Shown: positions 1,445 to 57,526 of the stretch, in pieces | Numbering within the stretch: position 1 is the stretch's first letter | Layout: each line of letters begins with the position of its first letter | IMG/VR virus record: IMGVR_UViG_3300031555_004728 | Span: 211,513 to 275,512 of that record | Length of the DNA: 64,000 bases | Source of the DNA: a virus | Taxonomy: Duplodnaviria; Caudoviricetes | Direction: 5' to 3' (one strand) | Notes under the pieces: generated by a model | Told to the model about the DNA's origin: nothing | Databases searched by the model: none | Seen by the model: the letters and a program-made list of their open reading frames with translations, nothing else | Translations under genes and position numbers: made by a program

Positions 1445-1526
1445 GAACCAATTTTGTTAAGTTAAATTTCTCTATTTCTCGATAATTTACGAAGAATACA
1501 GAAAACTTACTTAACAAAACTGCAAC
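1445..1526 (+). repeat. 82-bp palindromic site, copy 1
   Basis: GAACCAATTTTGTTAAGT...TCGATAATTTACGA...ACTTAACAAAACTGCAAC, dyad-symmetric about 1485/1486; near-identical copies at 1845 and 8844-8925. Confidence 0.95.
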
Positions 1527-1817
1527 CAGCAAGATCTTGAAACTTATATATCATCATCCACAATGCCATATGTATTTATAACATGTAGAGAAACTGATTC
1601 TACTGAAGTTGTAGATATCTTAAATTGTATACTTGATGAATTACCTAATGATATTTTATTTGGTATTAGGTTAGAAGGTCATAATATTCCAAGACAGTTT
1701 GGATCAGGGTATTTATATGATAATAGTAATTATGGTTCACTAATATTATCTACATGGGATGCACCTGCATTTTTTAGAATTTATAATAAAGAAATAACAA
1801 GAATAGTTTTAACCTAG
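1515..1817 (+). CDS. Start-less cassette 1, putative tail-fibre tip variant (100 aa; includes track ORF 1563..1817)
   Basis: Frame opens right after the TAA in the repeat: QNCNQQDLETYISSSTMPYV...; no RBS before the internal ATG; homologous to cassette 2 (GSGYLY/GTGFVY, GSLILST/GTFILSS, RIYN/RILN). Confidence 0.7.
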   Translation, partial: QNCNQQDLETYISSSTMPYVFITCRETDSTEVVDILNCILDELPNDILFGIRLEGHNIPRQFGSGYLYDNSNYGSLILSTWDAPAFFRIYNKEITRIVLT

Positions 1818-1844
1818 TTTTGTTTGAACTATAAATGGATAGTG

Positions 1845-1926
1845 GAACCAATTTTGTTAAGTTAACTTTCTCTATCTTTCGATAATTTCCTTTGATTACA
1901 GAAATCTTACTTAACAAAACTGCAAC
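1845..1926 (+). repeat. 82-bp palindromic site, copy 2
   Basis: Direct repeat of copy 1 exactly 400 bp downstream; identity extends through CAGCAAGA to 1934. Confidence 0.95.
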
Positions 1927-2214
1927 CAGCAAGAAATTATAAATTGTATAGAATCCAATCATATATGGCTTTCCGATAATACTGGTGAAGATATTACAAC
2001 ATCTGTATATAATTTAGCAACATTTTTCCCAATTAATACATCATTCTGTTGCATACTTCAAACACCATCTGGTATTTGGAATGGTACAGGTTTTGTATAT
2101 AAAGGAGCTGAAAATCAATTAAATGGGACATTCATATTATCAAGTGTTGCAGGTATATGTACTGTAAGAATATTAAATGGATATGCACTAGGACAAATGT
2201 TATATACATTTTAA
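1915..2214 (+). CDS. Start-less cassette 2, putative tail-fibre tip variant (99 aa)
   Basis: Missed by the ORF track; open frame QNCNQQEIINCIESNHIWLSDNTGEDITTSVYNLATFFPINTSFCCILQTPSGIWNGTGFVYKGAENQLNGTFILSSVAGICTVRILNGYALGQMLYTF*; the only Met is 5 residues from the end. Confidence 0.7.
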   Translation, partial: QNCNQQEIINCIESNHIWLSDNTGEDITTSVYNLATFFPINTSFCCILQTPSGIWNGTGFVYKGAENQLNGTFILSSVAGICTVRILNGYALGQMLYTF

Positions 2215-2215
2215 A

Positions 2216-2248
2216 AATAGAGAAGATGGAATTTCCATCTTCTCTATT
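2216..2248. terminator. Bidirectional intrinsic terminator
   Basis: AATAGAGAAGATGGA/TCCATCTTCTCTATT stem between cassette 2 and the convergent gene. Confidence 0.8.
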
Positions 2249-2251
2249 TAA

Positions 2252-3280
2252 TTATCTAAGATCATTAATAACTACAGCTGGATCATCTTCTTCAACTACC
2301 AAGTAATTATTACCACCACGTGATACTTCAGCAATTTCTCCACCATTAATAGTAAGAGTACATTTCTTGAATGTACCACTAGCATCAGTACTTGTGTTAG
2401 GTTTTTCAGGAGAACCAGCAAATGGAATTTCTCCACCAGCAAATAACTTATTAATAGTTCCTCCATTAATTACCATATCGATAGTATTCATTGTACCACG
2501 ATTGATACCTTGAAGAATATTAATATTACCACCATTAACAACCAAAACACCCGTTCCTTCGTGACCATTAGAACCTCCTACTGTAACATATGTTTCTGCA
2601 ACAAAATCACCATCGATAATCATTGATAATGATTTAGCATATGAATATCCGTTTCCACCACCGTAAACAAGATTTTCACAAGTTCCACCTGTAAGTTCCA
2701 TTGTAATGTCTTCTACAATATTCCATGTATTATCAATATCACCATCATATTTAACTGATGAGCATGTACATGTATTAATCCATCTATCTGCTCCACCACC
2801 ACGAATATTTCTACATTTACCACCTGTCATTTTAACAACAGCTTTTACAGTGTGTGATTTATGAAGACCACCACCAAATACGTGTTTAACATATCCACCT
2901 TCAATAGTTACACTTGTATTTGTAAGTGTTTCATCATCATGTCTTCCACCAAATAAATTAAGTGTTGGTCCTGCAAGAATTTCTCCACCATCCCATGTAA
3001 TAAGGCAACCTTCTTCTCCATCAGGTCTTTCCTTTACAACAACTGGTGTACCATTAGCAAAGAAGAATTCTTCACCTTCAAGAATAATAAGTTCTGTACT
3101 AGGTTCATCAACTTTAGCAGAAACTGAATTAATGAATGTCTCATTAACCATAGTTCTTACAATCTCTTCTACATCGGCTGTTGTAGCGATAGGAGCATTG
3201 TTTGCTTTTTCTTGTTGCTCTCTGATCTCTTTACATGTTTCACCGATGAAACCAAGTAAGGTTTTATTTTTAGTAGACAT
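2252..3280 (-). CDS. Gly-rich beta-solenoid repeat protein
   Basis: Repeated units such as V.MTGG...N.YGGG and INGG.I..LFAGG; RBS and AACA-N6-TA (3310-3321) upstream. Confidence 0.6.
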   Translation of the reverse strand: MSTKNKTLLGFIGETCKEIREQQEKANNAPIATTADVEEIVRTMVNETFINSVSAKVDEPSTELIILEGEEFFFANGTPVVVKERPDGEEGCLITWDGGEILAGPTLNLFGGRHDDETLTNTSVTIEGGYVKHVFGGGLHKSHTVKAVVKMTGGKCRNIRGGGADRWINTCTCSSVKYDGDIDNTWNIVEDITMELTGGTCENLVYGGGNGYSYAKSLSMIIDGDFVAETYVTVGGSNGHEGTGVLVVNGGNINILQGINRGTMNTIDMVINGGTINKLFAGGEIPFAGSPEKPNTSTDASGTFKKCTLTINGGEIAEVSRGGNNYLVVEEDDPAVVINDLR

Positions 3281-3375
3281 AATAGCTACCTTCCTTTCTT
3301 TTATAATATTAATAAACTGTTTTTAAGTCCATTTTTTAGACATTATTTTAAATTATTATTAGGAGGAAATTTAAG

Positions 3376-3621
3376 ATGTTTTCTGTTGAGAAATTAAATG
3401 AAATTAAATCTGAACTTGCAACTGTTTTAGAATCTGCTGAAAAAGAAGAAAAAGATCCGGTTGCTGAATTAGAGCAAAAAATAGAAGATATTAAGAAAAA
3501 AGAAACTAGAGGTTTTATTTCAAAAGAAGAAGCTGAAGAAGGAATTTCAGATCTTCAAAAGAAATTAAAAGAAATCAAAAAAGAACTTTCTGAAAAGAAA
3601 GAAGATAAAAAAGAAGATTAA
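3376..3621 (+). CDS. Small charged coiled-coil hypothetical protein
   Basis: AGGAGG RBS, E/K-rich ORF, terminator downstream. Confidence 0.75.
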   Translation: MFSVEKLNEIKSELATVLESAEKEEKDPVAELEQKIEDIKKKETRGFISKEEAEEGISDLQKKLKEIKKELSEKKEDKKED

Positions 3622-3624
3622 AAT

Positions 3625-3654
3625 AATCCTAGACTGAAAAATCAGTCTAGGATT
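3625..3654. terminator. Bidirectional intrinsic terminator
   Basis: AATCCTAGACTGA/TCAGTCTAGGATT stem between convergent genes. Confidence 0.8.
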
Positions 3655-3659
3655 TCTTT

Positions 3660-4238
3660 TTACAGAAGAATTGCTAATGCTTTAACATACTTATCTTTAA
3701 GAGAATCTGTTAAAGTATCATACAATTCAAAATGATGTTTGATGTCTGCAAGTTTAACAAACCATGCTGCTGAATATTGAGGTTTATTATCTTTTATCAT
3801 CTCAATATATGTATTGTATGGTTTTACAACTTTTGATTTTACTGGTTGATTGTCTTCATAATCGATATTTCTTGATACTAATTCAATACATGATATGATG
3901 TAATCTTCAATAACTGTATTGTGGATTTCAGATAAAATATTTCTTAAATCCTCAAGTGTTACATCAGTATCTTCAATTAAATCATGTGAAATACCAACTA
4001 TTTCAATTATGATTTCATCTTGGATTTCTAAAGCCATTCCTAACGTTCTTAACATTTCAGATGAATATTCAGCAACCTTTACAGCATGTTCATATGTAGC
4101 ATCATCATACTTAACAAGTGCAAGTTCTTTTATTTTTGCATTTACTGTTAATAATCTTCTTGTTTCATCTGGTAAAATTCTATCCCAGATAAAATTCATA
4201 TTTCTTGCATGATCAACTATCATTATTTTGTCCTCCAA
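3660..4238 (-). CDS. HD-domain phosphohydrolase, RelA/SpoT hydrolase (Mesh1/SAH)-like
   Basis: [22 protein letters not shown] and VKLADIKH motifs. Confidence 0.8.
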
Positions 4239-4441
4239 GTGATACGTCCTTTTGTTAAATCATATGGTGATATTTCAACAGTAACTTTATCACCTGGTAA
4301 GATTTTGATAAAATTCGTTCTTAGTTTTCCACTTATGTGTGCTAATACTTCATGGTCATTTTCAAGTTTAACCTTAAACATAGCACCTGGTAACTTTTCA
4401 GTTACAACACCTTCCAATTCAATAAAATCTTCTTTTGACAT
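4223..4441 (-). CDS. infA: Translation initiation factor IF-1
   Basis: [28 protein letters not shown]...[36 protein letters not shown], the canonical 72-aa IF-1. Confidence 0.98.
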
Positions 4442-4457
4442 TACATTTTCTCCTTCT

Positions 4458-4949
4458 TTATTTATATTGAGTATTCATTATATTATGTGCAATTATTTGC
4501 ATATCTATTTTTTGATATTCTCCATTAAAGTCTGTTGCTAAACCTACCATACGTTTAGCAATACCTTCAATCAAATACTTTTCAGCAATTTCTCTACTGG
4601 TATCTACAATTTTATGTGCAACTTGATCTGCAGATTTTTGATACTCATCAGTTTCAAGCAATGCTGCAACTTTATCATTTAGTACCTTATATACATTATC
4701 CGAAACTATCTTTCTAAAAGATGTCATCTTTTCATATGTATAAGTACTTGTATTAGGTATTGATGCATCATTAAATGTGTTAAATACCATTCTTATCATA
4801 GAATCTATTTCATTCTCATTTAAGTATCTTTCTAGTACATCATCTGTTAAAATATCTTTTACTTTTTCACGGATGACTTCTTTTGTAGTCTCTTTAATAA
4901 TTTCATCCATGTTTGAATTTTCATTAGTTGTTTTCATATTTTCTGACAT
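4458..4949 (-). CDS. Hypothetical protein
   Basis: 163-aa ORF with AAGGAG RBS, within an operon. Confidence 0.7.
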
Positions 4950-4976
4950 AGTTTAAATCTCCTTTATTTTATATTC

Positions 4977-5804
4977 TTAAAAATAATATATCTTTGAAAA
5001 AATATCAAAATATGAATAATCAATATGGAAAATTGCATAATATAATTTAACACTTCCATTATCTTCAAATTCATCTGACATAAATTCTATATATGGTTTA
5101 TCTTTTTCTGTATAGAATGGAAATAACTGTATATTACCTTCTATTTCTGGAAAGTCTTTATATTTAATACTGAATTTCTTTTTCATGTTAATTATATCTG
5201 GTTCTTCTTCATCATTAATAAATAATGAAATAAATAATTCAATATTATTCTTAATGAGTTCTAACTCATCATTCATCTTTGAGACTAAAGAATTTGTTTT
5301 TTCTTCATCACAAACTTCAATGACACCTAATTCTTTAGCCCTTGATAAGATAATATCTTTATCTTCAAGATTTTCTTCAACGAGACTTTTTAACTCCGAT
5401 ATATCTCGGATAAAAATGAGTTCGTTAGTTTCATTTTTAAATAAAATCTCTTTCATACATTCTTCAAATTCATCTTTTATTTTAATAATGAATTTCCCTT
5501 TTAATGATTCCTGAGAGATAACTCCAGGAATGGAATATATACCATTGTAAATATATAGATCTTTTCTATATACTTTATTAAGTTTTATTAGAAGACTTTT
5601 TAAATCTTTGGTAAGTCGTGTTTTTTCTTTTTTAAACTCTCTTAAAGCTTTAGCTTCATCCATAAGTCTTCTTTTTAATTCTTTTAAACTTTTTAAATCA
5701 TGCTCTTGATTATAGATTTCATCAAAATTTTCATAACCAAGAGCAGTCATTCTTTTTTCTATATCTTTTATTAAGTCTATTCTTGTATCTACCATTCGAA
5801 TCAC
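4977..5804 (-). CDS. Hypothetical protein
   Basis: 275-aa ORF coupled to the upstream gene. Confidence 0.7.
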   Translation of the reverse strand: MIRMVDTRIDLIKDIEKRMTALGYENFDEIYNQEHDLKSLKELKRRLMDEAKALREFKKEKTRLTKDLKSLLIKLNKVYRKDLYIYNGIYSIPGVISQESLKGKFIIKIKDEFEECMKEILFKNETNELIFIRDISELKSLVEENLEDKDIILSRAKELGVIEVCDEEKTNSLVSKMNDELELIKNNIELFISLFINDEEEPDIINMKKKFSIKYKDFPEIEGNIQLFPFYTEKDKPYIEFMSDEFEDNGSVKLYYAIFHIDYSYFDIFSKIYYF

Positions 5805-6211
5805 CTATTATAGTTTACATATCTGACTAAGTCAAATGCTATAATTCTTAGTTTATTATCATTTTTATTTTTACTACCCAATGCTCTGAGTTTTAACTCA
5901 TAGTCTTTTTCCTTAAGATCTTCAAGAATATACACATATTCTTCTTTTATAGGTTTTACTATAATTTCTTCTTCTGTGAAACTAACTAATCTAGCTATTA
6001 TAGTTTTAGCATCCACTGTCATAAAATCAAGAATATTTTTAAATTTATTATCAATTCTAAGTGGATCATATGTTATAGGAAGACCGCAACCAAATATATT
6101 ATTTGATTTATTCTGTGCTTCGTATATTTGTTCTTTTACTAAATCTATATGAATAGATTTAGTTCCTAATATAAAATCAGCTTTATCTCTTTTAAATATT
6201 ATATTCTTCAT
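5801..6211 (-). CDS. Hypothetical protein
   Basis: 136-aa ORF directly after the DNA polymerase gene. Confidence 0.65.
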   Translation of the reverse strand: MKNIIFKRDKADFILGTKSIHIDLVKEQIYEAQNKSNNIFGCGLPITYDPLRIDNKFKNILDFMTVDAKTIIARLVSFTEEEIIVKPIKEEYVYILEDLKEKDYELKLRALGSKNKNDNKLRIIAFDLVRYVNYNR

Positions 6212-6213
6212 GA

Positions 6214-8097
6214 TTATACTCCTAAGTCTTTACATGCTTTCTTATATAATTTATCCAACGATGGTAAATTAAACCATTTTCTACCAGTACATAACCAGTT
6301 TTTAGTTTGGAAATTATCAAAAGCTTCTTTAGCAACATCATCATGAAAATCTGATGTTTCTTTTGGTAATAATCTGACATTAGTTATAGTATGAACTTTT
6401 CTTGGACCACCAAGTACATTAAATTGACCTGCATCAAGAATACACTTAAAGTGTAATGTACTAGGGTCAATATTCATGGCGAATATTGTACTTGGATAGA
6501 AACTACTCATATCCATATCTATAGCATATTGGAATATATTATTTGACTTTTTACTTCCATATAAAGCCATACCAGTTGGAAGATTTAATCTAGGATCACC
6601 TACAAGTGCACCCTCGAATCCAACTTTTTTCTTATCATCATCATCATCCTCATCTGGTTCTTCATCACTACCAAATGGTGTTAGGTTTATATTTTCACCA
6701 GGAACCATTCCACGTGTTAAGAAATCCAAATATTGATAATTCCTAAGTTTTACAGTTTGTTTAAATTCTGAATCGTATGGTGTTATATTTTGATATGCCG
6801 TAGCATAATAGTTTTCTAAATCTTTAGTTTTATCTTCAATACCTTTTTGAAGTAAAACGTCTTTGATGTTGTATATAAAATATTTCTTATAATTCTTATA
6901 AGAGAAATATTTAATACTTCCTTCTTCACCATAATCTAATTTAGAATCACCCACTACTTTTTTACCTATATAATTAAGTGAGAATGAACGTATTTCTGAT
7001 TGACCTTTTCTAATAGCCGCATACGTTCTCATCTGACATGTATAATTAGTATATGATGTATTAAAAAAGTAGTCTGTTTTTGATTTAATATCAAAATGAA
7101 AATTATCTTTTTTAAACCAGCATTCTTTAACTGGAAAATCTGGATGACAGAATAAATCCTTAGGATCTAATCCTAACTTCTGAGCACGCTTATAAATATA
7201 ATTAACGTCAAATTCGAAGTTCCAGAAAGTTACAAAATCAAATTTCCTTTTATTAATTAATTCAAAAAGATGAACTAACATCTTTTTTTCATCTTTATAG
7301 AAAAAGAATTTATAATCTAAGACTCCATATACATCATCAAACATCTCATGAAGTTCTTTCTTTATATCTTCTTGATGCTCGATAAAATCTATTTCCTGTT
7401 CAAGTCTACTTTTATGGAGTTCTCTTCTATATAATTCTTTATCTCTTTCACTTTGTGTCATATATGTTAAATCACGTTCAACATATTCACGTCCAACCAA
7501 AGCAAATGTGTAACACTTGGATTCATCGTTATCCACAAGTGTTACTAAATCAATAGGACATGTATCTGGATTAGCCAATCCTTCAACATCCAAAAAATCC
7601 GTCTCTATATCGGCAAATGCCTTTGATATAGGTTTAGGTCTTGAATTGTCATACATCATCATCCATTTATATCTATATAGTGCTCTTACATCATAATCAG
7701 CACCATATACAAATGGATACATTAAAAAATTCTTAAGTTCTGAGTATCTATGAGTTTTATAGATATCAGAGGCTTGTCTTTTTAAACCATCACCACCATC
7801 TTCAATTATGGCTGGTATAATATCTTTAAATGGTACACTTTTCTTTTCACACTTATCAAGATATTGATAGTTCAAACTGTATGGAACTCCATAAGGATCT
7901 AAATGTGTTGTCCTGTATTCTGGTTTTTCAAAGTATATGTCCACTGGTGGATTTGGTATTGTTGTAACGTGTTTTTCTTCTGTATCCAAATCTTTCCAAA
8001 CGATATATAAAATATCTGGAGTTCCTTCTTTTTTGTTTTCTTTTACGTATTGGATATCTACAAGCATTGCAGAATCCTTTGGTATAATTTTACCCAT
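6214..8097 (-). CDS. Family B DNA polymerase, N-terminal (exonuclease plus motif A) subunit of a split enzyme
   Basis: ExoI ADIETD, ExoII FWNFEFDVNY, ExoIII YNIKDV, GFEGALV and motif A DMDMSSFYPS; motifs B and C are absent. Confidence 0.85.
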   Translation of the reverse strand: MGKIIPKDSAMLVDIQYVKENKKEGTPDILYIVWKDLDTEEKHVTTIPNPPVDIYFEKPEYRTTHLDPYGVPYSLNYQYLDKCEKKSVPFKDIIPAIIEDGGDGLKRQASDIYKTHRYSELKNFLMYPFVYGADYDVRALYRYKWMMMYDNSRPKPISKAFADIETDFLDVEGLANPDTCPIDLVTLVDNDESKCYTFALVGREYVERDLTYMTQSERDKELYRRELHKSRLEQEIDFIEHQEDIKKELHEMFDDVYGVLDYKFFFYKDEKKMLVHLFELINKRKFDFVTFWNFEFDVNYIYKRAQKLGLDPKDLFCHPDFPVKECWFKKDNFHFDIKSKTDYFFNTSYTNYTCQMRTYAAIRKGQSEIRSFSLNYIGKKVVGDSKLDYGEEGSIKYFSYKNYKKYFIYNIKDVLLQKGIEDKTKDLENYYATAYQNITPYDSEFKQTVKLRNYQYLDFLTRGMVPGENINLTPFGSDEEPDEDDDDDKKKVGFEGALVGDPRLNLPTGMALYGSKKSNNIFQYAIDMDMSSFYPSTIFAMNIDPSTLHFKCILDAGQFNVLGGPRKVHTITNVRLLPKETSDFHDDVAKEAFDNFQTKNWLCTGRKWFNLPSLDKLYKKACKDLGV

Positions 8098-8160
8098 ATA
8101 AATACCTACTTTCTTTTAATATGAGTTTAAATTATTGTGCTTTGGTATATAAAAAAGAAC

Positions 8161-8194
8161 TATGATGAAGAAGACAAAAATCTTCTTCATCATA
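8161..8194 (-). terminator. Intrinsic terminator after cassette 3
   Basis: TATGATGAAGAAGA/TCTTCTTCATCATA stem. Confidence 0.75.
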
Positions 8195-8198
8195 TAAA

Positions 8199-8855
8199 TT
8201 AAATTGCCCAATATCCATCTACTGATATTAAACCTTCAATTTTATTAGTATTATCATATCCAGAACCACTTACTGTATAACATAATAATGCAAATCCAGT
8301 GTCCCATAATTCTCTTATATAATAATTTTTTACAAACCACATTCCACCATGCAACGTAAACTGTGGACAGGCATTATAAATATTAAATGGATAAAGACAT
8401 GCTGTTGATGGTGTACCTGCACTATCTGATGTTGCACCATTAATACCTGATGCTACACACCATGCTTTACAATAGCCATTTTGATATTTTATATAATTCC
8501 AGTTATTTATTTTACCGCTTTCTACCATAGGATTTTCACGAGCCCACGGTTCAAATTTACGTACAACTGTAACACCATCAGAGTCATGCATTGTTAAATA
8601 TGCTCTTCTATATACTCTTCCATTAATAGTTGTGAATTCTTGAAATTTATATATCCATGGAGATCCAGGTGAATTGAATGAACCGTTTCCATCATAAACC
8701 ATAAGTCTACCAGCAGAAACTTGTGGGAGATTTAAACATGTTTCTGCCTCAGTATTTCCTTTTACATAATATATACCACTATCTAAAACTGTATTAATAT
8801 CAACATTTTCTAAGTATCCTTTAATAATAACAAGATTTTGAGAGTTGCAGTTTTG
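8199..8855 (-). CDS. Start-less cassette 3, tail-fibre C-terminal region (pyocin-knob-like plus distal tip domain, 218 aa; includes track ORF 8199..8702)
   Basis: Frame opens after the repeat TAA: QNCNSQNLVIIKGYLENVDINTVLDSGIYYV...NLPQVSAGRLMV...QEFTTINGRVYRR...W, then VESGKINNWNYIKYQNGYCKAW...VDGYW, both typical phage fibre tip motifs; the track ATG falls mid-domain. Confidence 0.8.
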   Translation of the reverse strand, partial: QNCNSQNLVIIKGYLENVDINTVLDSGIYYVKGNTEAETCLNLPQVSAGRLMVYDGNGSFNSPGSPWIYKFQEFTTINGRVYRRAYLTMHDSDGVTVVRKFEPWARENPMVESGKINNWNYIKYQNGYCKAWCVASGINGATSDSAGTPSTACLYPFNIYNACPQFTLHGGMWFVKNYYIRELWDTGFALLCYTVSGSGYDNTNKIEGLISVDGYWAI

Positions 8856-8925
8856 TTAAGTAAGATTTCTGTAATCTTCGATAATTCTCTAAAGATAGAG
8901 AAATTTAACTTAACAAAATTGGTTC
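8844..8925 (-). repeat. 82-bp palindromic site, copy 3 (inverted relative to copies 1 and 2)
   Basis: Reverse complement GAACCAATTTTGTTAAGTTAAATTTCTCTATCTTTAGAGAATTATCGAAGATTACAGAAATCTTACTTAACAAAACTGCAAC aligns without gaps to copies 1 and 2. Confidence 0.95.
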
Positions 8926-9014
8926 ACACCCCTTTTTTCTTATAATTAATTTAGTATTAAATTATCAATTTAACAAATTTGTAATGTTTAACTTATATAA
9001 GGAGGTAAAAAATA

Positions 9015-24497: not shown

Positions 24498-25904
24498 GTG
24501 AATACATTGAAAGTAGGATTATTAAATACTGAAGAATTTATTTCAGTAAATAATCTTAAGGAAATAACATCACCTGTTATGTTCCAAAGAGGAAATAACC
24601 CTCATCCAGAAGGTCTCTTTAGTACTGAAATTTTTGGTATGACACCAAAAGATAGAAAAGAGACTTTTGCATATATTAATTTAAATCATGTATTCCTACA
24701 TCCTCATATTTATAAGATAATGAAACGATTTTTTAGAAACGTTGAAAAAATAGTTAATGGTTCTTCTTATTATCAAATTAATAGTGAAGGACATCTTGTT
24801 TTATCTGATAATATTAATGGGGAAACAGGAGTTCAATTTTTATATGATAACTGGGAAAAGATTAAATGGGAATATTCTGATTCACCGTCAAGAAACGAAA
24901 GAATTGATGTTGTGACAAAAAGTAAGAAATCAGAAGTTTTCATTTCAAAACTTATAATCATTCCACCATTTTATCGAGATGTAACATCATCATCAGGTGG
25001 AGGACAAATACCAGAGATTAATAACTTTTATGCAAATGCTATTCGTTTATCTTCTATATTAAAAGAAAACGATTTATTTAGTTTTAATCTCTATTCATCT
25101 CAATATGCTATACAAGAATTACTTGTAGAGACATATGATTATTTTAAAGAAAAACTTCAATCTAAAAATGGTTTACTTAGAAAATATCTTATGGGTAAAA
25201 ACGTTGACCTTTGTACAAGAGCTGTTATTACAGCAGCATCTTTCCATGCAAATAGACCTGAAGATATGCAGATTAATCTTAAATATAGTGGTGTTCCTAT
25301 ATCACATATTTTATCTCTATGTAATCCATTTATTATGACATGGATTAAAAATTTCTTTGAACGTGAATTAATGGATCCAAGTGAAAAGCATTTAATTGAT
25401 TCTAGAACTGGGAAGGTTGTTGAATTAGTTGAACTTGCTAATCCTGAACTTATTTTTACTGATAAAGAAATTACAAAGAAAATGAATTCATTTATTAAAG
25501 ATCCAGATATGAGATTCAAGCCAATTGAAGTTCCTCTTAAAAATGGAAAAACTTCATATCTTTTATTTCATGGTAAAAGATATGATATGAGAAATAAAGA
25601 TGAAATTGCATCAATTGCTAATAGAAAGATGACATGGACAGATGTATTTTATATGGCATGTGAAGATGCAGTTAAAGATAAACATGCAATTATTACTAGA
25701 TATCCTTTGATTGACCAGTATGGTCTTTTTGTTACTAGAGTAACTACATTGAGTACATCAAAAACTGTACCTATGCAAGTTGGTGAAACTTTATATCCAT
25801 ATTATCCAGATATTGATTTATCTGTACCAGATAGTAAAGTTCCTACTTTATTTATAGATTCAGTTATGTTCTCTAATAGTTATCTTCCTGGTATAGATGG
25901 TGAT
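24498..25904 (+). CDS. rpoC: Phage multisubunit RNA polymerase beta' subunit, exon 1
   Basis: GLFSTEIFG, LRKYLMGKNVD..RAVI, ITRYP; ends ...GIDGD at the first half of the catalytic DxDGD; AACA-N6-TA at 24465-24476. Confidence 0.9.
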
Positions 25905-26187
25905 TAACAAAATAGTTACCTAACCTCTTTAATTGCTGGAAACTCCTTAGAGTCTAAACTACCAAAGTGTAACAATGTTTAGAATTGGACAATCAGCAGC
26001 GAAGCTTCTTATTATAAGAAGAACGTTCAACGACTATCGAAAGCATAACATAAGAGAAAGACTTATGTGAAGAAGTGAGTAGAGTAGGATTTATAATCCG
26101 AAATGGGAGGCAATATTAATTTGGTAGTAGAATTAATATTGAAGATATAGTCTGAACTTTATAGAAATATAGAGATTAACATAGTTG
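25905..26187 (+). ncRNA. Group I intron (283 nt, no ORF) in the beta' catalytic motif
   Basis: P1 GGTGAT/GTTACC with U-G pair at the 5' splice site; P AATTGCTGGAAACTCC, Q AATCAGCAG, R GTTCAACGACTA, S AAGATATAGTC; terminal G; splicing restores DGDYDGDQ. Confidence 0.95.
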
Positions 26188-56314: not shown

Positions 56315-57526
56315 TAATATCCTAGCTCACAAAGTATAGTAATATACTTTTAGGAAACCTCTTTAATTGCTGGGAACTCTTGTTAGGTCTTAGATACCAA
56401 AGTGTAACAATTCTAAGAATAGAGACAATCAGCAGCGAAGCTAAATTATTAAAAATACTATGAAAAAACATGGTAAAAACTCTTTAAAAAGTTATCTAGA
56501 TAATTATATTGTAAATGATAACTTTGAAGAGAGAATTATATTTATAAATGGCGAAGAAACCCATTATAGAATTAGAAGTAATGGTGAAATAATTTCAACG
56601 GAATATCAAGGTAAAAAACGAAAAATACCTCATATTATGATTGGTGGAATTGATAAAGATGGATATAGATTAGTTACGTTAACTCATAATAAAGTTAAAC
56701 GTACATATCGAATTCATAGATTGGTTGCAGAATATTTTATTCCAAATCCATTTAATAAACCAGAAGTTAATCATAAAGATGGCAATAAACTAAATAATGA
56801 TATTTCAAATTTAGAATGGGCGTATCAATGGGAAAATTCTGAACATGCAGTAGTTACTGGTTTAAAATCAGGAGTTAATTCTTCAGAATATATACATTTA
56901 GTTTGTCAATTATTAGAAAGTAATCTTTATAGTATGAAAGAAATTTCTAATATAACTGGTATAGAATATGAATTGGTTGTAAAAATACATTCTGGTTATT
57001 GCTATAAACATATAGCAGATCAATATAAAATAAGCAATTATAACCAATCCGATCATATTGATAAACGAGAATACGAACTTATTGACGATGATACTATTAA
57101 AAATATTTGTATTGAATTAGTTAATGGGTATTTAAATATATCAGAATTATCTAAAAAATACAATGTTTCAAAAACTACAATAAAACGTATTCTCAATCAT
57201 GAAACAAGAAAAGATATAACTTTGAATTATTCATTTAATGATTATAATACTAAAGGCATAAATCAGTTTATTAAAAATATAAAAGGATGTGATATTATAA
57301 ATGAAAATTTATAAAATTGATTCTTCGCTAAAAATATATAATAAAAAATAAAATAATTTAGAACGTTCAACGACTATCGAAAGCATAACTTAAGAGAAAT
57401 ACTTAAGTGAAGAAGCGAGTAGAGTACACTTATTATATAAGTGGAAATGGGAGGCATCTTATATTTGGTAATAGAATATGAGATGAAGATATAGTCTAAT
57501 CTTTATAGAGATATAAAGTATTAATG
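56315..57526 (+). mobile_element. Group I intron (1212 nt) with HNH homing endonuclease in gyrB
   Basis: P1 GTGAGT/GCTCAC with U-G pair; P/Q/R/S elements nearly identical to the beta' intron; terminal G at 57526; splicing gives SAGEFGIGITCCNALS. Confidence 0.95.
56460..57314 (+). CDS. Intron-encoded HNH homing endonuclease with C-terminal HTH-like repeats
   Basis: Y.I.SNG.I, DKDGY..V.L, HRLVAEYFIPNP.NKPEVNHKDGNKLNN.ISNLEW. Confidence 0.92.
   Translation: MKKHGKNSLKSYLDNYIVNDNFEERIIFINGEETHYRIRSNGEIISTEYQGKKRKIPHIMIGGIDKDGYRLVTLTHNKVKRTYRIHRLVAEYFIPNPFNKPEVNHKDGNKLNNDISNLEWAYQWENSEHAVVTGLKSGVNSSEYIHLVCQLLESNLYSMKEISNITGIEYELVVKIHSGYCYKHIADQYKISNYNQSDHIDKREYELIDDDTIKNICIELVNGYLNISELSKKYNVSKTTIKRILNHETRKDITLNYSFNDYNTKGINQFIKNIKGCDIINENL

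Follow-up and report, generated by a model that had tools for sequence, protein, structure and literature searches.

How are open reading frames with no start codon at their 5' ends expressed, when each of them is headed by the same long palindrome? The question is raised by the 64,000-nt window analysed here, in which copies of an 82-bp dyad element stand at 1445..1526 (+), 1845..1926 (+) and 8844..8925 (−), positions that were confirmed. The original prediction took the frames behind them for silent alternative tips, fused to a constant fibre N-terminus that is encoded elsewhere, and it is supported by the gene and the strain variation described below. Every copy has TAA CAA AAC TGC AAC in its right arm, with an uninterrupted frame of 100, 99 and 218 codons, respectively, as had been described. 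Three is the number of copies inside the window but not their total, since the 275,512-bp phage genome holds 35. A window search with a 22-nt left-arm pattern, in which as many as 3 mismatches were allowed, found 4 sites against 0.03 expected, a number not reached in any of 100 shuffles; three of the sites are the copies themselves, and the other is copy 1's right arm on the opposite strand.

Copy 1 (c+212966; RNA fold z = −4.9) has its left arm TTTTGTTAAGT at 1452-1462 and its right arm ACTTAACAAAA at 1509-1519 (+), with the in-frame TAA at 1512-1514. Its 11-bp core AAACTGCAACC, at 1517..1527 (+), is the same stretch as the constant/variable junction of the expressed gene. Silent tip cassette 1 follows at 1515..1817 (+), with 100 codons from QNCN and the stop TAG at 1815-1817; it gave one weak PHROG match of unknown function. 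Copy 2 (c+213366) begins 27 bp past this stop and heads cassette 2 at 1915..2214 (+), whose 99 codons end in TAA at 2212-2214. Copy 3 (c-220428) lies on the minus strand, with the core AAACTGCAAC then T at 8853-8843, and is adjoined upstream by a purine/G-rich run, AAAAAAGGGGTGT, at 8926..8938 (−), which represents the G-rich flank at this copy. Cassette 3 occupies 8199..8855 (−), 218 codons from QNCN to the stop at 8201-8199. The absence of a start codon holds for the 5' ends of the cassettes, but an in-frame ATG occurs further inside, at codon 17 (1563), 95 (the sole in-frame Met of cassette 2) and 52 of cassettes 1, 2 and 3, respectively. Cassettes 2 and 3 were thought to end at terminators of their own; for cassette 3 this stands, as the terminator scan called an intrinsic-terminator-like hairpin at 8161..8194 (−), while 3' of cassette 2 a terminator-like inverted repeat is visible at 2217..2247 (no strand assigned), common with the convergent gene at 2252-3280 (−), which fails the T-run rule of the scan. 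Cassettes 1 and 2 had been called diverged homologues, but their likeness is weak (E = 0.008 in BLASTP, 25% identity, much of it in the shared QNCNQQ), and the assignment of cassette 3 to fibre tips draws on weak tail-fibre PHROG matches (phrog_6578, 9e-4; phrog_8239, 2e-3). No Pfam match was obtained for any of the three window cassettes.

The 35 elements span the genome from 29.5 kb to 220.4 kb, about 191 kb, with 13 on the forward and 22 on the reverse strand, while the reversed-pattern control gave 0 matches in the whole genome. Length (82 bp) and reading frame are identical in 35/35, and each element presents TAA and then Q-N-C-N in a fixed frame, followed by an open frame of 90-276 codons; at a genome G+C of 28.5%, a run of 90 codons without a stop in a random frame has a probability of about 4.5e-4 by our own arithmetic. 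Nine of the 35 cassettes are without any Met. Offsets 0-20 and 61-80 are invariant across the copies, with the sole exception of a G to A change at offset 11 in one copy, and polymorphisms of the interior assort as a mosaic. The inner stretches at offsets 22-29 and 52-59 are invariant too, and have no role in the exchange model set out below. Read in the cassette frame, the left arm is AAC CAA TTT TGT TAA and the right arm TAA CAA AAC TGC AAC; the two strong arms stand back to back, 46 bp apart, and beyond the elements and the two arms of the expression module the exact 11-mer arm was found only once in the genome. The element always sits at the 5' end of its cassette, also where a single cassette is closed by a terminator. 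A G/A-rich run precedes 35/35 elements (GGG at −3 to −1 in 26-28/35), and TATAAAT occurs within 60 nt upstream of 9/35, against 3.6% of random windows; therefore some of the "silent" cassettes may be transcribed. Similarity from tip to tip is low: of 36 tips compared, 8 pairs are related at E ≤ 1e-5. The tip of c+51071 matches Gp10_C (PF21939, 7.2e-9, above cut-off) and 9 tail PHROGs, that of c-191134 matches the tail-fibre phrog_4492 (2.1e-18), and two further tips gave weak matches to the C-terminal ends of tail-fibre families.

The recipient gene and a recombinase are absent from the window, as had been stated. When the genome was searched for a gene with the junction, one intact fibre gene was found at genome 186101-187528, 24 kb before the window. 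Its product has 475 aa, and its constant part of 378 codons ends ...E-L-N-C-N on the core AAACTGCAACC, the junction letters being GAGCT|AAACTGCAACC; the same 11-bp core is common to every element. Upstream of the promoter of this gene stands a lone left arm (185925-185942), and three genomes show such an arm before the promoter of the module. Promoter, AAGGAGG ribosome-binding site, ATG and the 378 constant codons form a single-copy module of about 1.3 kb, which shares with the elements only 18 bp on the left and 11 bp on the right, both in this genome and in the metagenome contig L029 (JAEIGA010000180.1), and with other letters in a 278,849-bp relative, G003. In G003, 18 diverged 82-nt hairpin elements read stop and then L-N-S-N, the junction holds an 11-nt core, CTAAATAGTAA, and the lone left arm stands upstream of the constant gene. 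Between the two element-bearing lineages, one arm pair covaries (UA to AU).

Strain variation was compared in proteins and in contigs. Behind LNCN, at the 11-bp core, four different tips are joined on in P0001, P0002, P0003 and L029, so that the same constant part is found with other tips in other strains, joined exactly at the core, as the original prediction would have it. In P0003 the constant part has 96% identity and the tip corresponds in 109/110 residues to the silent cassette c+185514, which in the studied genome stands in direct orientation upstream of the module (185.5 kb); the tip of P0002 is absent from the studied genome. In L029 the module (96.8% over 1313 nt) is reversed and stands between genome 142760 and 143280, 43 kb away, where the junction LNCN|QQEMLRLGIGDSK is the orthologue of silent c-142823. 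On both sides of the module L029 is collinear with the studied genome, where it aligns with 142322-142760 and 143280-159243 without a change of direction. The module is thus at a different element with its surroundings in order, and therefore neither a single inversion of the Gin/Cin type nor a tip copied to a fixed site explains the arrangement. L029 is without the neighbouring cassette c-143293 and without c+155067; from the loss of the former it follows that the exchange was not a clean one-for-one, or that further events occurred. The c-142823 tip compared with L029 gave dN/dS = 0.48, with equal length and no stop.

Runs X7, X11 and X12 were compared as assembled contigs. Constant-part contigs of X7 and X11 match up to and including the final base of the core and then continue with 396 and 439 unlike letters, respectively. 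In other contigs of X7, X11 and X12, the match starts at the first base of the core and runs through the tip expressed in the studied genome; 19 (X7), 11 (X11) and 19 (X12) unlike letters precede it, and the constant part is not in front. The 8 pieces listed for X12 show 0 differences from the studied genome, yet have the other configuration. X7 and X11 are without cassette c+187575. In one X11 contig, a near-whole element seemingly abuts the left arm of the module (joint 13840 to 12126), an arrangement that a simple swap does not predict. It can be seen that the same module stands at different elements, fused to different tips, in different strains. In the other strains the breakpoints coincide with the borders of the left arm and the core (within offsets 0-17 and within AAACTGCAACC), and such positions are compatible with strand exchange in a central region by an enzyme of the phage.

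A candidate enzyme is encoded 8.3-9.4 kb before the window, as a search for recombinases had been advised to seek. The genome has a single PF00589 gene, at 202143-203168 (4.8e-37), and its product scores as Xer-type with NF040815, named "tyrosine recombinase/integron integrase" (238.8 bits against a cut-off of 220), while 181 and 171 with the XerC and XerD models are under their cut-offs. No serine recombinase or Y1 transposase was found in the genome. A reverse transcriptase was likewise sought, and no PF00078 match was obtained in the genome; a diversity-generating retroelement was rejected on this result. The recombinase gene lies 15 kb from the module and 6-7 kb from the nearest cassettes; no element adjoins it, and module and cassettes are likewise unlinked to it. 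An orthologue with 73% identity is encoded by G003, while in G004, which has a 44% homologue of the constant part, neither the 82-nt element nor the recombinase was found. The recombinase thus co-occurs with the elements in 2/2 genomes that have them and in 0/1 without. According to the accessible text on dif sites (PMC2731167), the arm TTTTGTTAAGT agrees in 10/11 bases with the XerD arm TTATGTTAAGT of the Rhodoferax dif and in 9/11 with that of E. coli. The partner arms (G-rich flank and first tip codons) are unlike a XerC arm. Co-occurrence in two genomes and likeness of the arms are the two links of this putative exchange enzyme to the elements.

Taken together, the above results suggest, with a probability that we put at about 0.7, that the three window cassettes are part of a silent library of 35 receptor-binding tips with a module-exchange switch, in a 275-kb gut phage. 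A tip is without a promoter-to-start module of its own and would be expressed only when the single 1.3-kb module stands before it, each 82-bp element being a putative docking site. Where the module sits, the left arm (offsets 0-17) lies upstream of it, the 54-bp interior is gone, and the core AAACTGCAACC (offsets 72-82) is the in-frame joint to the tip. Two dif-like sites that differ in their 6-bp centres may be present in every element: site A (G-rich flank, AACCAA and TTTTGTTAAGT) and site B (ACTTAACAAAA, CTGCAA and the first codons of the tip). Exchange at A together with exchange at B, between an occupied and a silent site and presumably performed by the phage's own Xer-type tyrosine recombinase, would swap module and interior in a manner that resembles recombinase-mediated cassette exchange. 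Such a swap would serve cassettes on either strand and keep the remaining genome order. As the module-side arm at the core, GATGAGCTAAA, agrees with the strong arm at only 6/11 positions, the proposed site B of the module would have two weak arms. The expected result is a changed receptor-binding tip of the fibre, and hence probably a changed host range. The full form of this mechanism, in which the Xer-type recombinase moves the 1.3-kb module by two heterospecific dif-like sites among 35 hairpin docking sites on either strand, often enough for the virions of one burst to differ in their tips, is put forward tentatively, at somewhat less than an even chance. If true, a lytic jumbo phage would have a programmed host-range lottery that extends over its whole genome and keeps gene order intact.

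The elements might instead be portable patches of homology, with no dedicated switch, among which general homologous recombination or gene conversion moves the module or the tips. The mosaic interior polymorphisms are as expected from gene conversion, whole cassettes are gained or lost between strains (c+187575; c+155067 and c-143293), and no heterogeneity within a population was seen in the runs compared as contigs. However, the shared 18 bp and 11 bp are short for exchange driven by homology, the arms are near-invariant in 35/35 while the tips share almost nothing, and the XerD-like arm and the co-occurrence of an Xer-type recombinase (2/2 against 0/1) remain to be accounted for, as do the X12 pieces, identical to the studied genome in another configuration. 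We therefore regard this explanation as unlikely. The differences of configuration among strains could be rare evolutionary events; that switching occurs within one population is what we infer.

Inversions alone, taking place only between the core of the fibre gene and the cores of inverted cassettes, would make the locus a classical multiple-inversion shufflon and L029 the net result of several events. Tyrosine-recombinase shufflons with 11-bp sites are known for phage receptor-binding proteins, such as Rin in the portion of the account available (PMC6109161), 22/35 cassettes are inverted relative to the module, and two inversions, at left arms and at cores, formally equal the proposed exchange. 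Several observations nevertheless make it quite unlikely. One event at any of the 13/35 direct cassettes would delete DNA, and the tip of P0003 belongs to just such a direct cassette upstream of the module; both flanks of L029 keep their direction, which is impossible by a single inversion; and the lone left arm of three genomes would be without a role if the core alone were used.

Expression of each cassette where it stands, by a Shine-Dalgarno-like G-run that the hairpin brings to the frame (paralleled by T4 gene 38), by a ribosome hop from UGU-UAA to UGC (paralleled by T4 gene 60) or by hairpin excision or trans-splicing, would agree with the G/A-rich runs and TATAAAT motifs and with the matching Cys or Gln codons in both arms, which could allow a hop, but it is very improbable, given that no consistent start codon was found upstream of the cassettes in any frame, no tRNA gene able to read an odd start in the genome and no Rfam match at the elements, that an RNA device would have no use for a lone left arm before a promoter, and that the cassettes are fused to the constant part at the core in DNA, by which the open frame and the conserved NCN are explained without recoding.

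With 35 start-less tips and strains that carry different fusions, the module exchange favoured here therefore looks like an unusually large genome-wide switch of host recognition, and a literature search found no description of such a system. It has features in common with several known systems. In Neisseria pilE/pilS and Borrelia vlsE, silent copies are gene-converted into a fixed expression locus, and in Mycoplasma pulmonis vsa, inversions take place within one locus. As there, many copies lack promoter, start and constant 5' part and there is one expression site; unlike there, the expression module stands where the cassette itself lies. Gene conversion of the pilE/pilS type was rejected on the position of the L029 module and on the X7, X11 and X12 contigs, in which the tip is without the constant part. 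Integrons hold promoterless cassettes with imperfect palindromic attC sites recognised by a tyrosine recombinase. The present cassettes are likewise promoterless, each with a palindromic site, but the site is at the 5' and not the 3' end of the cassette, the start codon is missing and the fusion is in frame. An integron was rejected, as the recombinase scored 91.9 bits with TIGR02249 (cut-off 265) and 52.4 with NF011946 (cut-off 435), and neither attI/Pc nor an element lies beside its gene.

Gin, Cin and Min are serine invertases that act on 2 to 6 sites in one invertible region adjoining the enzyme gene and alter host range; in contrast, no serine recombinase was found in this genome. Like Gin of Mu, Cin of P1 and Min of p15B, as far as the accessible text describes them (PMC6109161), the present system exchanges the C-terminus of a fibre within the coding sequence and site-specifically. 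With the shufflon class (R64 Rci, Min, Rin) it shares an encoded recombinase, which presumably acts on the elements, and a constant 5' part fused in frame to alternative 3' parts. Membership in that class was rejected, since its locus is clustered and its variants arise by inversion, while here the sites range from 29.5 to 220.4 kb with the recombinase 15 kb off the module, the L029 module is reversed between unchanged flanks, and 13/35 sites are direct. A further comparison is that with Rin of Bifidobacterium prophages, where, in the part of the report at hand (PMC6109161), about five Rv cassettes lie in one locus between the recombinase and constant genes and are switched by inversion. Both have a phage tyrosine recombinase, a constant N-terminal part of a receptor-binding protein with dissimilar C-terminal cassettes, and a short asymmetric 11-bp repeat before each cassette as the crossover site. 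Unlike Rin as described there, the 35 cassettes of this phage occupy both strands of some 191 kb, each with an 82-bp hairpin element and unlinked to the recombinase, and the module of promoter plus constant part occurs at different elements between collinear flanks.

The remaining likeness is to Xer/dif, in the recombinase family and in a near-XerD 11-bp arm beside a 6-bp possible central region (PMC2731167, from the text available), and to the dif modules of Acinetobacter plasmids, which, in the accessible portion of their description, are bounded by Xer-type sites and thought to be mobile between them (PMC7399989). Compared with dif as portrayed in the former source, a single 28-bp site for dimer resolution, the element in this phage has two strong arms 46 bp apart in a hairpin with partner arms that are not those of dif, and the module that it bounds is the front half of a gene, with its joint in frame.

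The window carries three copies of an 82-bp dyad element at exactly the positions of the original prediction, 1445-1526 (+), 1845-1926 (+) and 8844-8925 (−), and in all three the right arm, TAA CAA AAC TGC AAC, runs into an open frame of the predicted length (100, 99 and 218 codons). The 22-nt left-arm pattern matches at 4 places in the window, where chance would give 0.03. In the whole genome (275,512 bp, direct terminal repeats, 28.5% G+C), of which the window forms the final 64 kb, there are 35 copies, 13 forward and 22 reverse, and the reversed pattern, used as a control over the same genome, gave 0 elements. All 35 are exactly 82 bp long, with the right arm at a fixed offset, and lead in the same frame into an open frame of 90-276 codons (the cassette, or tip), in which Met is absent throughout in 9 cases. 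Offsets 0-20 and 61-80 are invariant among the copies, the sole exception being a G to A change at offset 11 in one of them, and the interior has about 20 variable positions. GGG stands directly before 26-28 of the 35 elements, and ten semi-conserved bases, CCAACAAGAA, follow on the 3' side. At the cassette c-142823 (genome 142833-142870, −) about 13 AT dinucleotides directly precede the element in place of the G-rich run of other copies. Besides the elements and the two arms of the module described below, the exact 11-mer arm occurs once more in the genome. An IMG/VR scan with an 18-mer of the left arm gave nine loci, six of which were 99.9-100% identical fragments of the same phage (genome 15.9-66.6 kb) and three chance matches in unrelated coding DNA; in two of the latter records the gapped arm pattern found nothing. 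The heptamer TATAAAT, similar to a T4-type late promoter, lies within 60 nt upstream of 9/35 elements, compared with 3.6% of random 60-nt windows (in the window at 1432-1438 and 1830-1836), and this enrichment suggests that silent cassettes may be transcribed.

The original prediction placed a recipient gene elsewhere in the genome, and such a gene exists. It is an intact 475-codon tail-fibre gene at genome 186101-187528, with AAGGAGG and ATG, whose constant part ends ...LLQNQIDE-LNCN and is followed by its own tip. The junction reads GAGCT|AAACTGCAACC, and these 11 bases, the core, are common to the right end of every element. Upstream of the promoter region of the gene, at 185925-185942, lies a lone left arm, GAACCAATTTTGTTAAGT, after which neither interior nor right arm was found. 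The order at the expressed locus is thus left arm, module, core and tip. The module, 1.3 kb in length, comprises the promoter, the start and the constant part of 378 codons, and is single-copy in the genome. A second copy of the left arm, TTTTGTTAAGT, was observed at 185960 inside the left end of the module (185943-185990), preceded by the right-arm-like AAACAAAAAC, so that the layout is arm, 4 nt, weak inverted arm, arm; the layout in the related phage G003 is similar (L034, 9470 onward). A search for related loci with the constant part alone gave only 2 distant loci, the 22-mer across the constant/tip junction had 0 matches in IMG/VR, and the module had no match among GenBank phages.

The decisive results are the comparisons between strains, in which variation of the joined tip was seen in both proteins and contigs. 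Three proteins in the protein collection contain the constant part at 87% identity or more. P0001 is the fibre gene of the present genome; P0003 has a 96% identical constant part and LNCN, followed by a tip that equals the silent cassette c+185514 in 109/110 residues; the tip of P0002 is absent from the present genome. Six more distant fibre homologues (P0004-P0009) all turn from conserved to unrelated sequence at ...LLQNQI[DTN]TLNS[NK]. When an 18-mer of the junction was searched for, genome contigs gave 3 loci, all chance matches, and metagenome contigs gave 8, namely 7 chance matches and L029, part of an 88-kb contig of a related strain (78-97% nucleotide identity). In L029 the module, 96.8% identical over 1313 nt, is found in reverse orientation between genome 142760 and 143280. 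Its junction, LNCN|QQEMLRLGIGDSK..., leads into the orthologue of silent cassette c-142823, and the flanks match genome 142322-142760 and 143280-159243 in unchanged direction. The module boundaries are those of the present genome to the base (...GTTAAGT|AAAATAAAC... and ...GATGAGCT|AAACTGCAACC). The joints have no more than about 25 and 11 bases in common with repeats, which is too little for an assembly chimera. A single inversion cannot give this arrangement. The cassettes c+155067 and c-143293 are missing in L029, and dN/dS between the two strains is 0.48 for the tip c-142823 and 0.23 for the constant part.

Four public sequencing runs, all as contigs, were also compared with genome 173801-193800. 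Constant-part contigs of runs X7 and X11 match to the last base of the core and continue with 396 and 439 unlike letters. Other contigs, from X7, X11 and X12, match from the first core base through the tip expressed in the present genome, and are preceded by 19, 11 and 19 letters, respectively, unlike the constant part. For X7 and X12 the sum 19 + 11 = 30 letters is that of a contig starting at the edge of a repeat at k = 31, a value that we assumed. Since X12 has 0 differences from the present genome in the 8 listed pieces, a nearly identical strain has another configuration. In X7 and X11, 67 letters stand in place of the cassette c+187575. In one X11 contig (L022:12126 + 13840, which is genome 185926 + 187640), 68 letters matching element offsets 7-74 seem to stand directly before the left arm of the module, and this joint would make ACTTAACAAAA-AACCAA-TTTTGTTAAGT, a two-arm site that is perfect and has a spacer of 6 bp. 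Taken together, the comparisons show that one module accompanies many silent tips and stands at different elements in different strains, with breakpoints at the left arm and at the core, and that empty sites have the interior of the element, which the occupied site lacks.

The genome encodes one tyrosine recombinase (202143-203168, 8.3-9.4 kb before the window), with PF00589 (4.8e-37) and a SAM-like N-terminal domain. It scores 238.8 against NF040815, exceeding the cut-off of 220, and falls below the cut-offs of the XerC, XerD and integron integrase models; searches of the genome for a serine recombinase, a reverse transcriptase and a Y1 transposase gave none. When the element arm TTTTGTTAAGT was set against the XerD arms of dif tabulated in PMC2731167, it agreed in 10/11 bases with that of Rhodoferax, TTATGTTAAGT, and in 9/11 with that of E. 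coli, TTATGTTAAAT. According to PMC2731167, conservation of dif is highest on the XerD side and at the inner positions of the arms, with a hexamer as the central region. A gene at genome 203225-204130 (−), 7.4-8.3 kb before the window, is convergent with the recombinase gene and has matches to DUF4376 (4e-6) and tail-fibre phrog_1348 (1.6e-7); its product could be a fibre-associated or chaperone-like protein.

Each element may comprise two sites for an Xer-type enzyme, in both of which a 6-bp centre would separate one strong arm from a weak arm on the outside: site A would be G-rich flank-AACCAA-TTTTGTTAAGT, and site B would be ACTTAACAAAA-CTGCAA-CCAACAAGAAA. As the two centres differ, each kind of site would pair with its own kind alone. 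An exchange at A together with one at B, between the occupied and a silent element, would then swap the module with the interior, and such a double exchange would serve direct and inverted cassettes alike, with gene order restored. Several observations fit this model poorly. The module's own site B arm is degenerate (6/11), the model has no place for the invariant inner parts of the element, and c-143293 is gone from L029. The X11 contig seems to carry an almost complete element directly before the left arm of the module. The TATAAAT enrichment upstream of the elements is likewise not accounted for.

The same architecture, in other letters, is found in G003, an IMG/VR phage of 278,849 bp whose constant part is 74% identical to P0006. 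It has 18 elements, each of 82 nt (GGACGGAATTTAGTTAAGT...CTAAATAGTAAC), giving a stop followed by L-N-S-N. A lone left arm precedes the start of its constant gene by 530 nt, the junction of constant part and tip carries an 11-nt core, CTAAATAGTAA, and there is a recombinase orthologue (73% identity). The counterpart hexamers in G003, ACGGAA and TAGTAA, likewise differ from each other. Comparison of the two lineages shows co-variation at one arm base pair (UA to AU) and one-sided changes at two others; each pair count includes one gapped row, from the 11-nt stretch L007:1996-2006. In G004, a third phage, with a 44% identical constant part, neither that element nor the recombinase was found.

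Apart from QNCN, which QQE often follows, the 35 cassette products have little in common; of the pairs among 36 tips, only 8 show relatedness at E ≤ 1e-5. The families recognised are C-terminal ends of tail proteins: c+51071 matches Gp10_C (PF21939, 7.2e-9) and 9 tail PHROGs, c-191134 matches tail-fibre phrog_4492 (2.1e-18), and weak tail-fibre matches were obtained with c+155560 (5.7e-4) and with cassette 3 of the window, behind element 8844-8925 (9e-4). Pfam gave no match for the three window cassettes. Cassettes 1 and 2 had been read as diverged homologues; the likeness found between them is marginal, at E = 0.008. Among longer proteins no homologue of cassette 3 was found, and its AlphaFold2 model, made without an alignment, was unusable (mean pLDDT 34.8).

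No Rfam family matches at the elements. The single Rfam match elsewhere is a group I catalytic intron at window 25868-26174 (+) (RF00028, matched over the full length of the model at 87.1 bits and E = 7.9e-21). The genome also has another dispersed repeat, about 160-175 nt long with 74-87% identity, which is not related to the 82-bp element. It was observed at genome 16349-16527 (L010:435-613) and at about six other places, at 79.7, 150.5, 175.4, 176.6, 237.6 and 268.9 kb, the last two lying in the window at about 26017-26174 and 57360-57526. One copy overlaps the 3' part of the intron match, so that the repeats could be related introns, whole or fragmentary. A search with ARAGORN gave neither a tRNA nor a tmRNA gene in the window or the genome, which is unusual for a phage genome of 275 kb.

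Other explanations were weighed against the movement of one module among many elements. The shufflon class, as defined by clustering and inversion, was tested on both counts, and neither clustering nor inversion was found. Gene conversion of the pilE/pilS type was rejected, as was membership of the integrons; the DGR class was rejected as well, no reverse transcriptase having been found in the genome. Because a Shine-Dalgarno-like G-run stands just before each hairpin, translation-level devices had been considered first, and a ribosome hop, a hairpin-bridged ribosome site, hairpin excision and trans-splicing were all dropped because constant part and tip are fused at the DNA level.

In a single genome one fibre has 36 tips or more, and the population has further ones. 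Gene callers miss or truncate start-less frames, for example cassette 2, and standard phage annotation therefore does not show such libraries. An active switch would account for the ability of a large gut phage to follow many types of host surface. It would also be a DNA rearrangement that serves sites on either strand and leaves the genome unscrambled, and would offer a natural exchange system of two sites and a small recombinase. Searches of the literature gave no paper on a genome-dispersed library of start-less fibre tips, or on a movable constant module, in phages. Exchange of fibre tips by recombination is textbook knowledge for Mu, P1 and p15B (Gin, Cin, Min) and, more recently, Rin. 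Of the described systems, the closest is the Rin shufflon (PMC6109161). In Mu, P1, p15B and Rin, 2 to about 6 alternatives lie in one small invertible locus, whereas the present genome has at least 36 tips scattered over most of 275 kb, and the piece found at different places is not the tips but the front of the gene.
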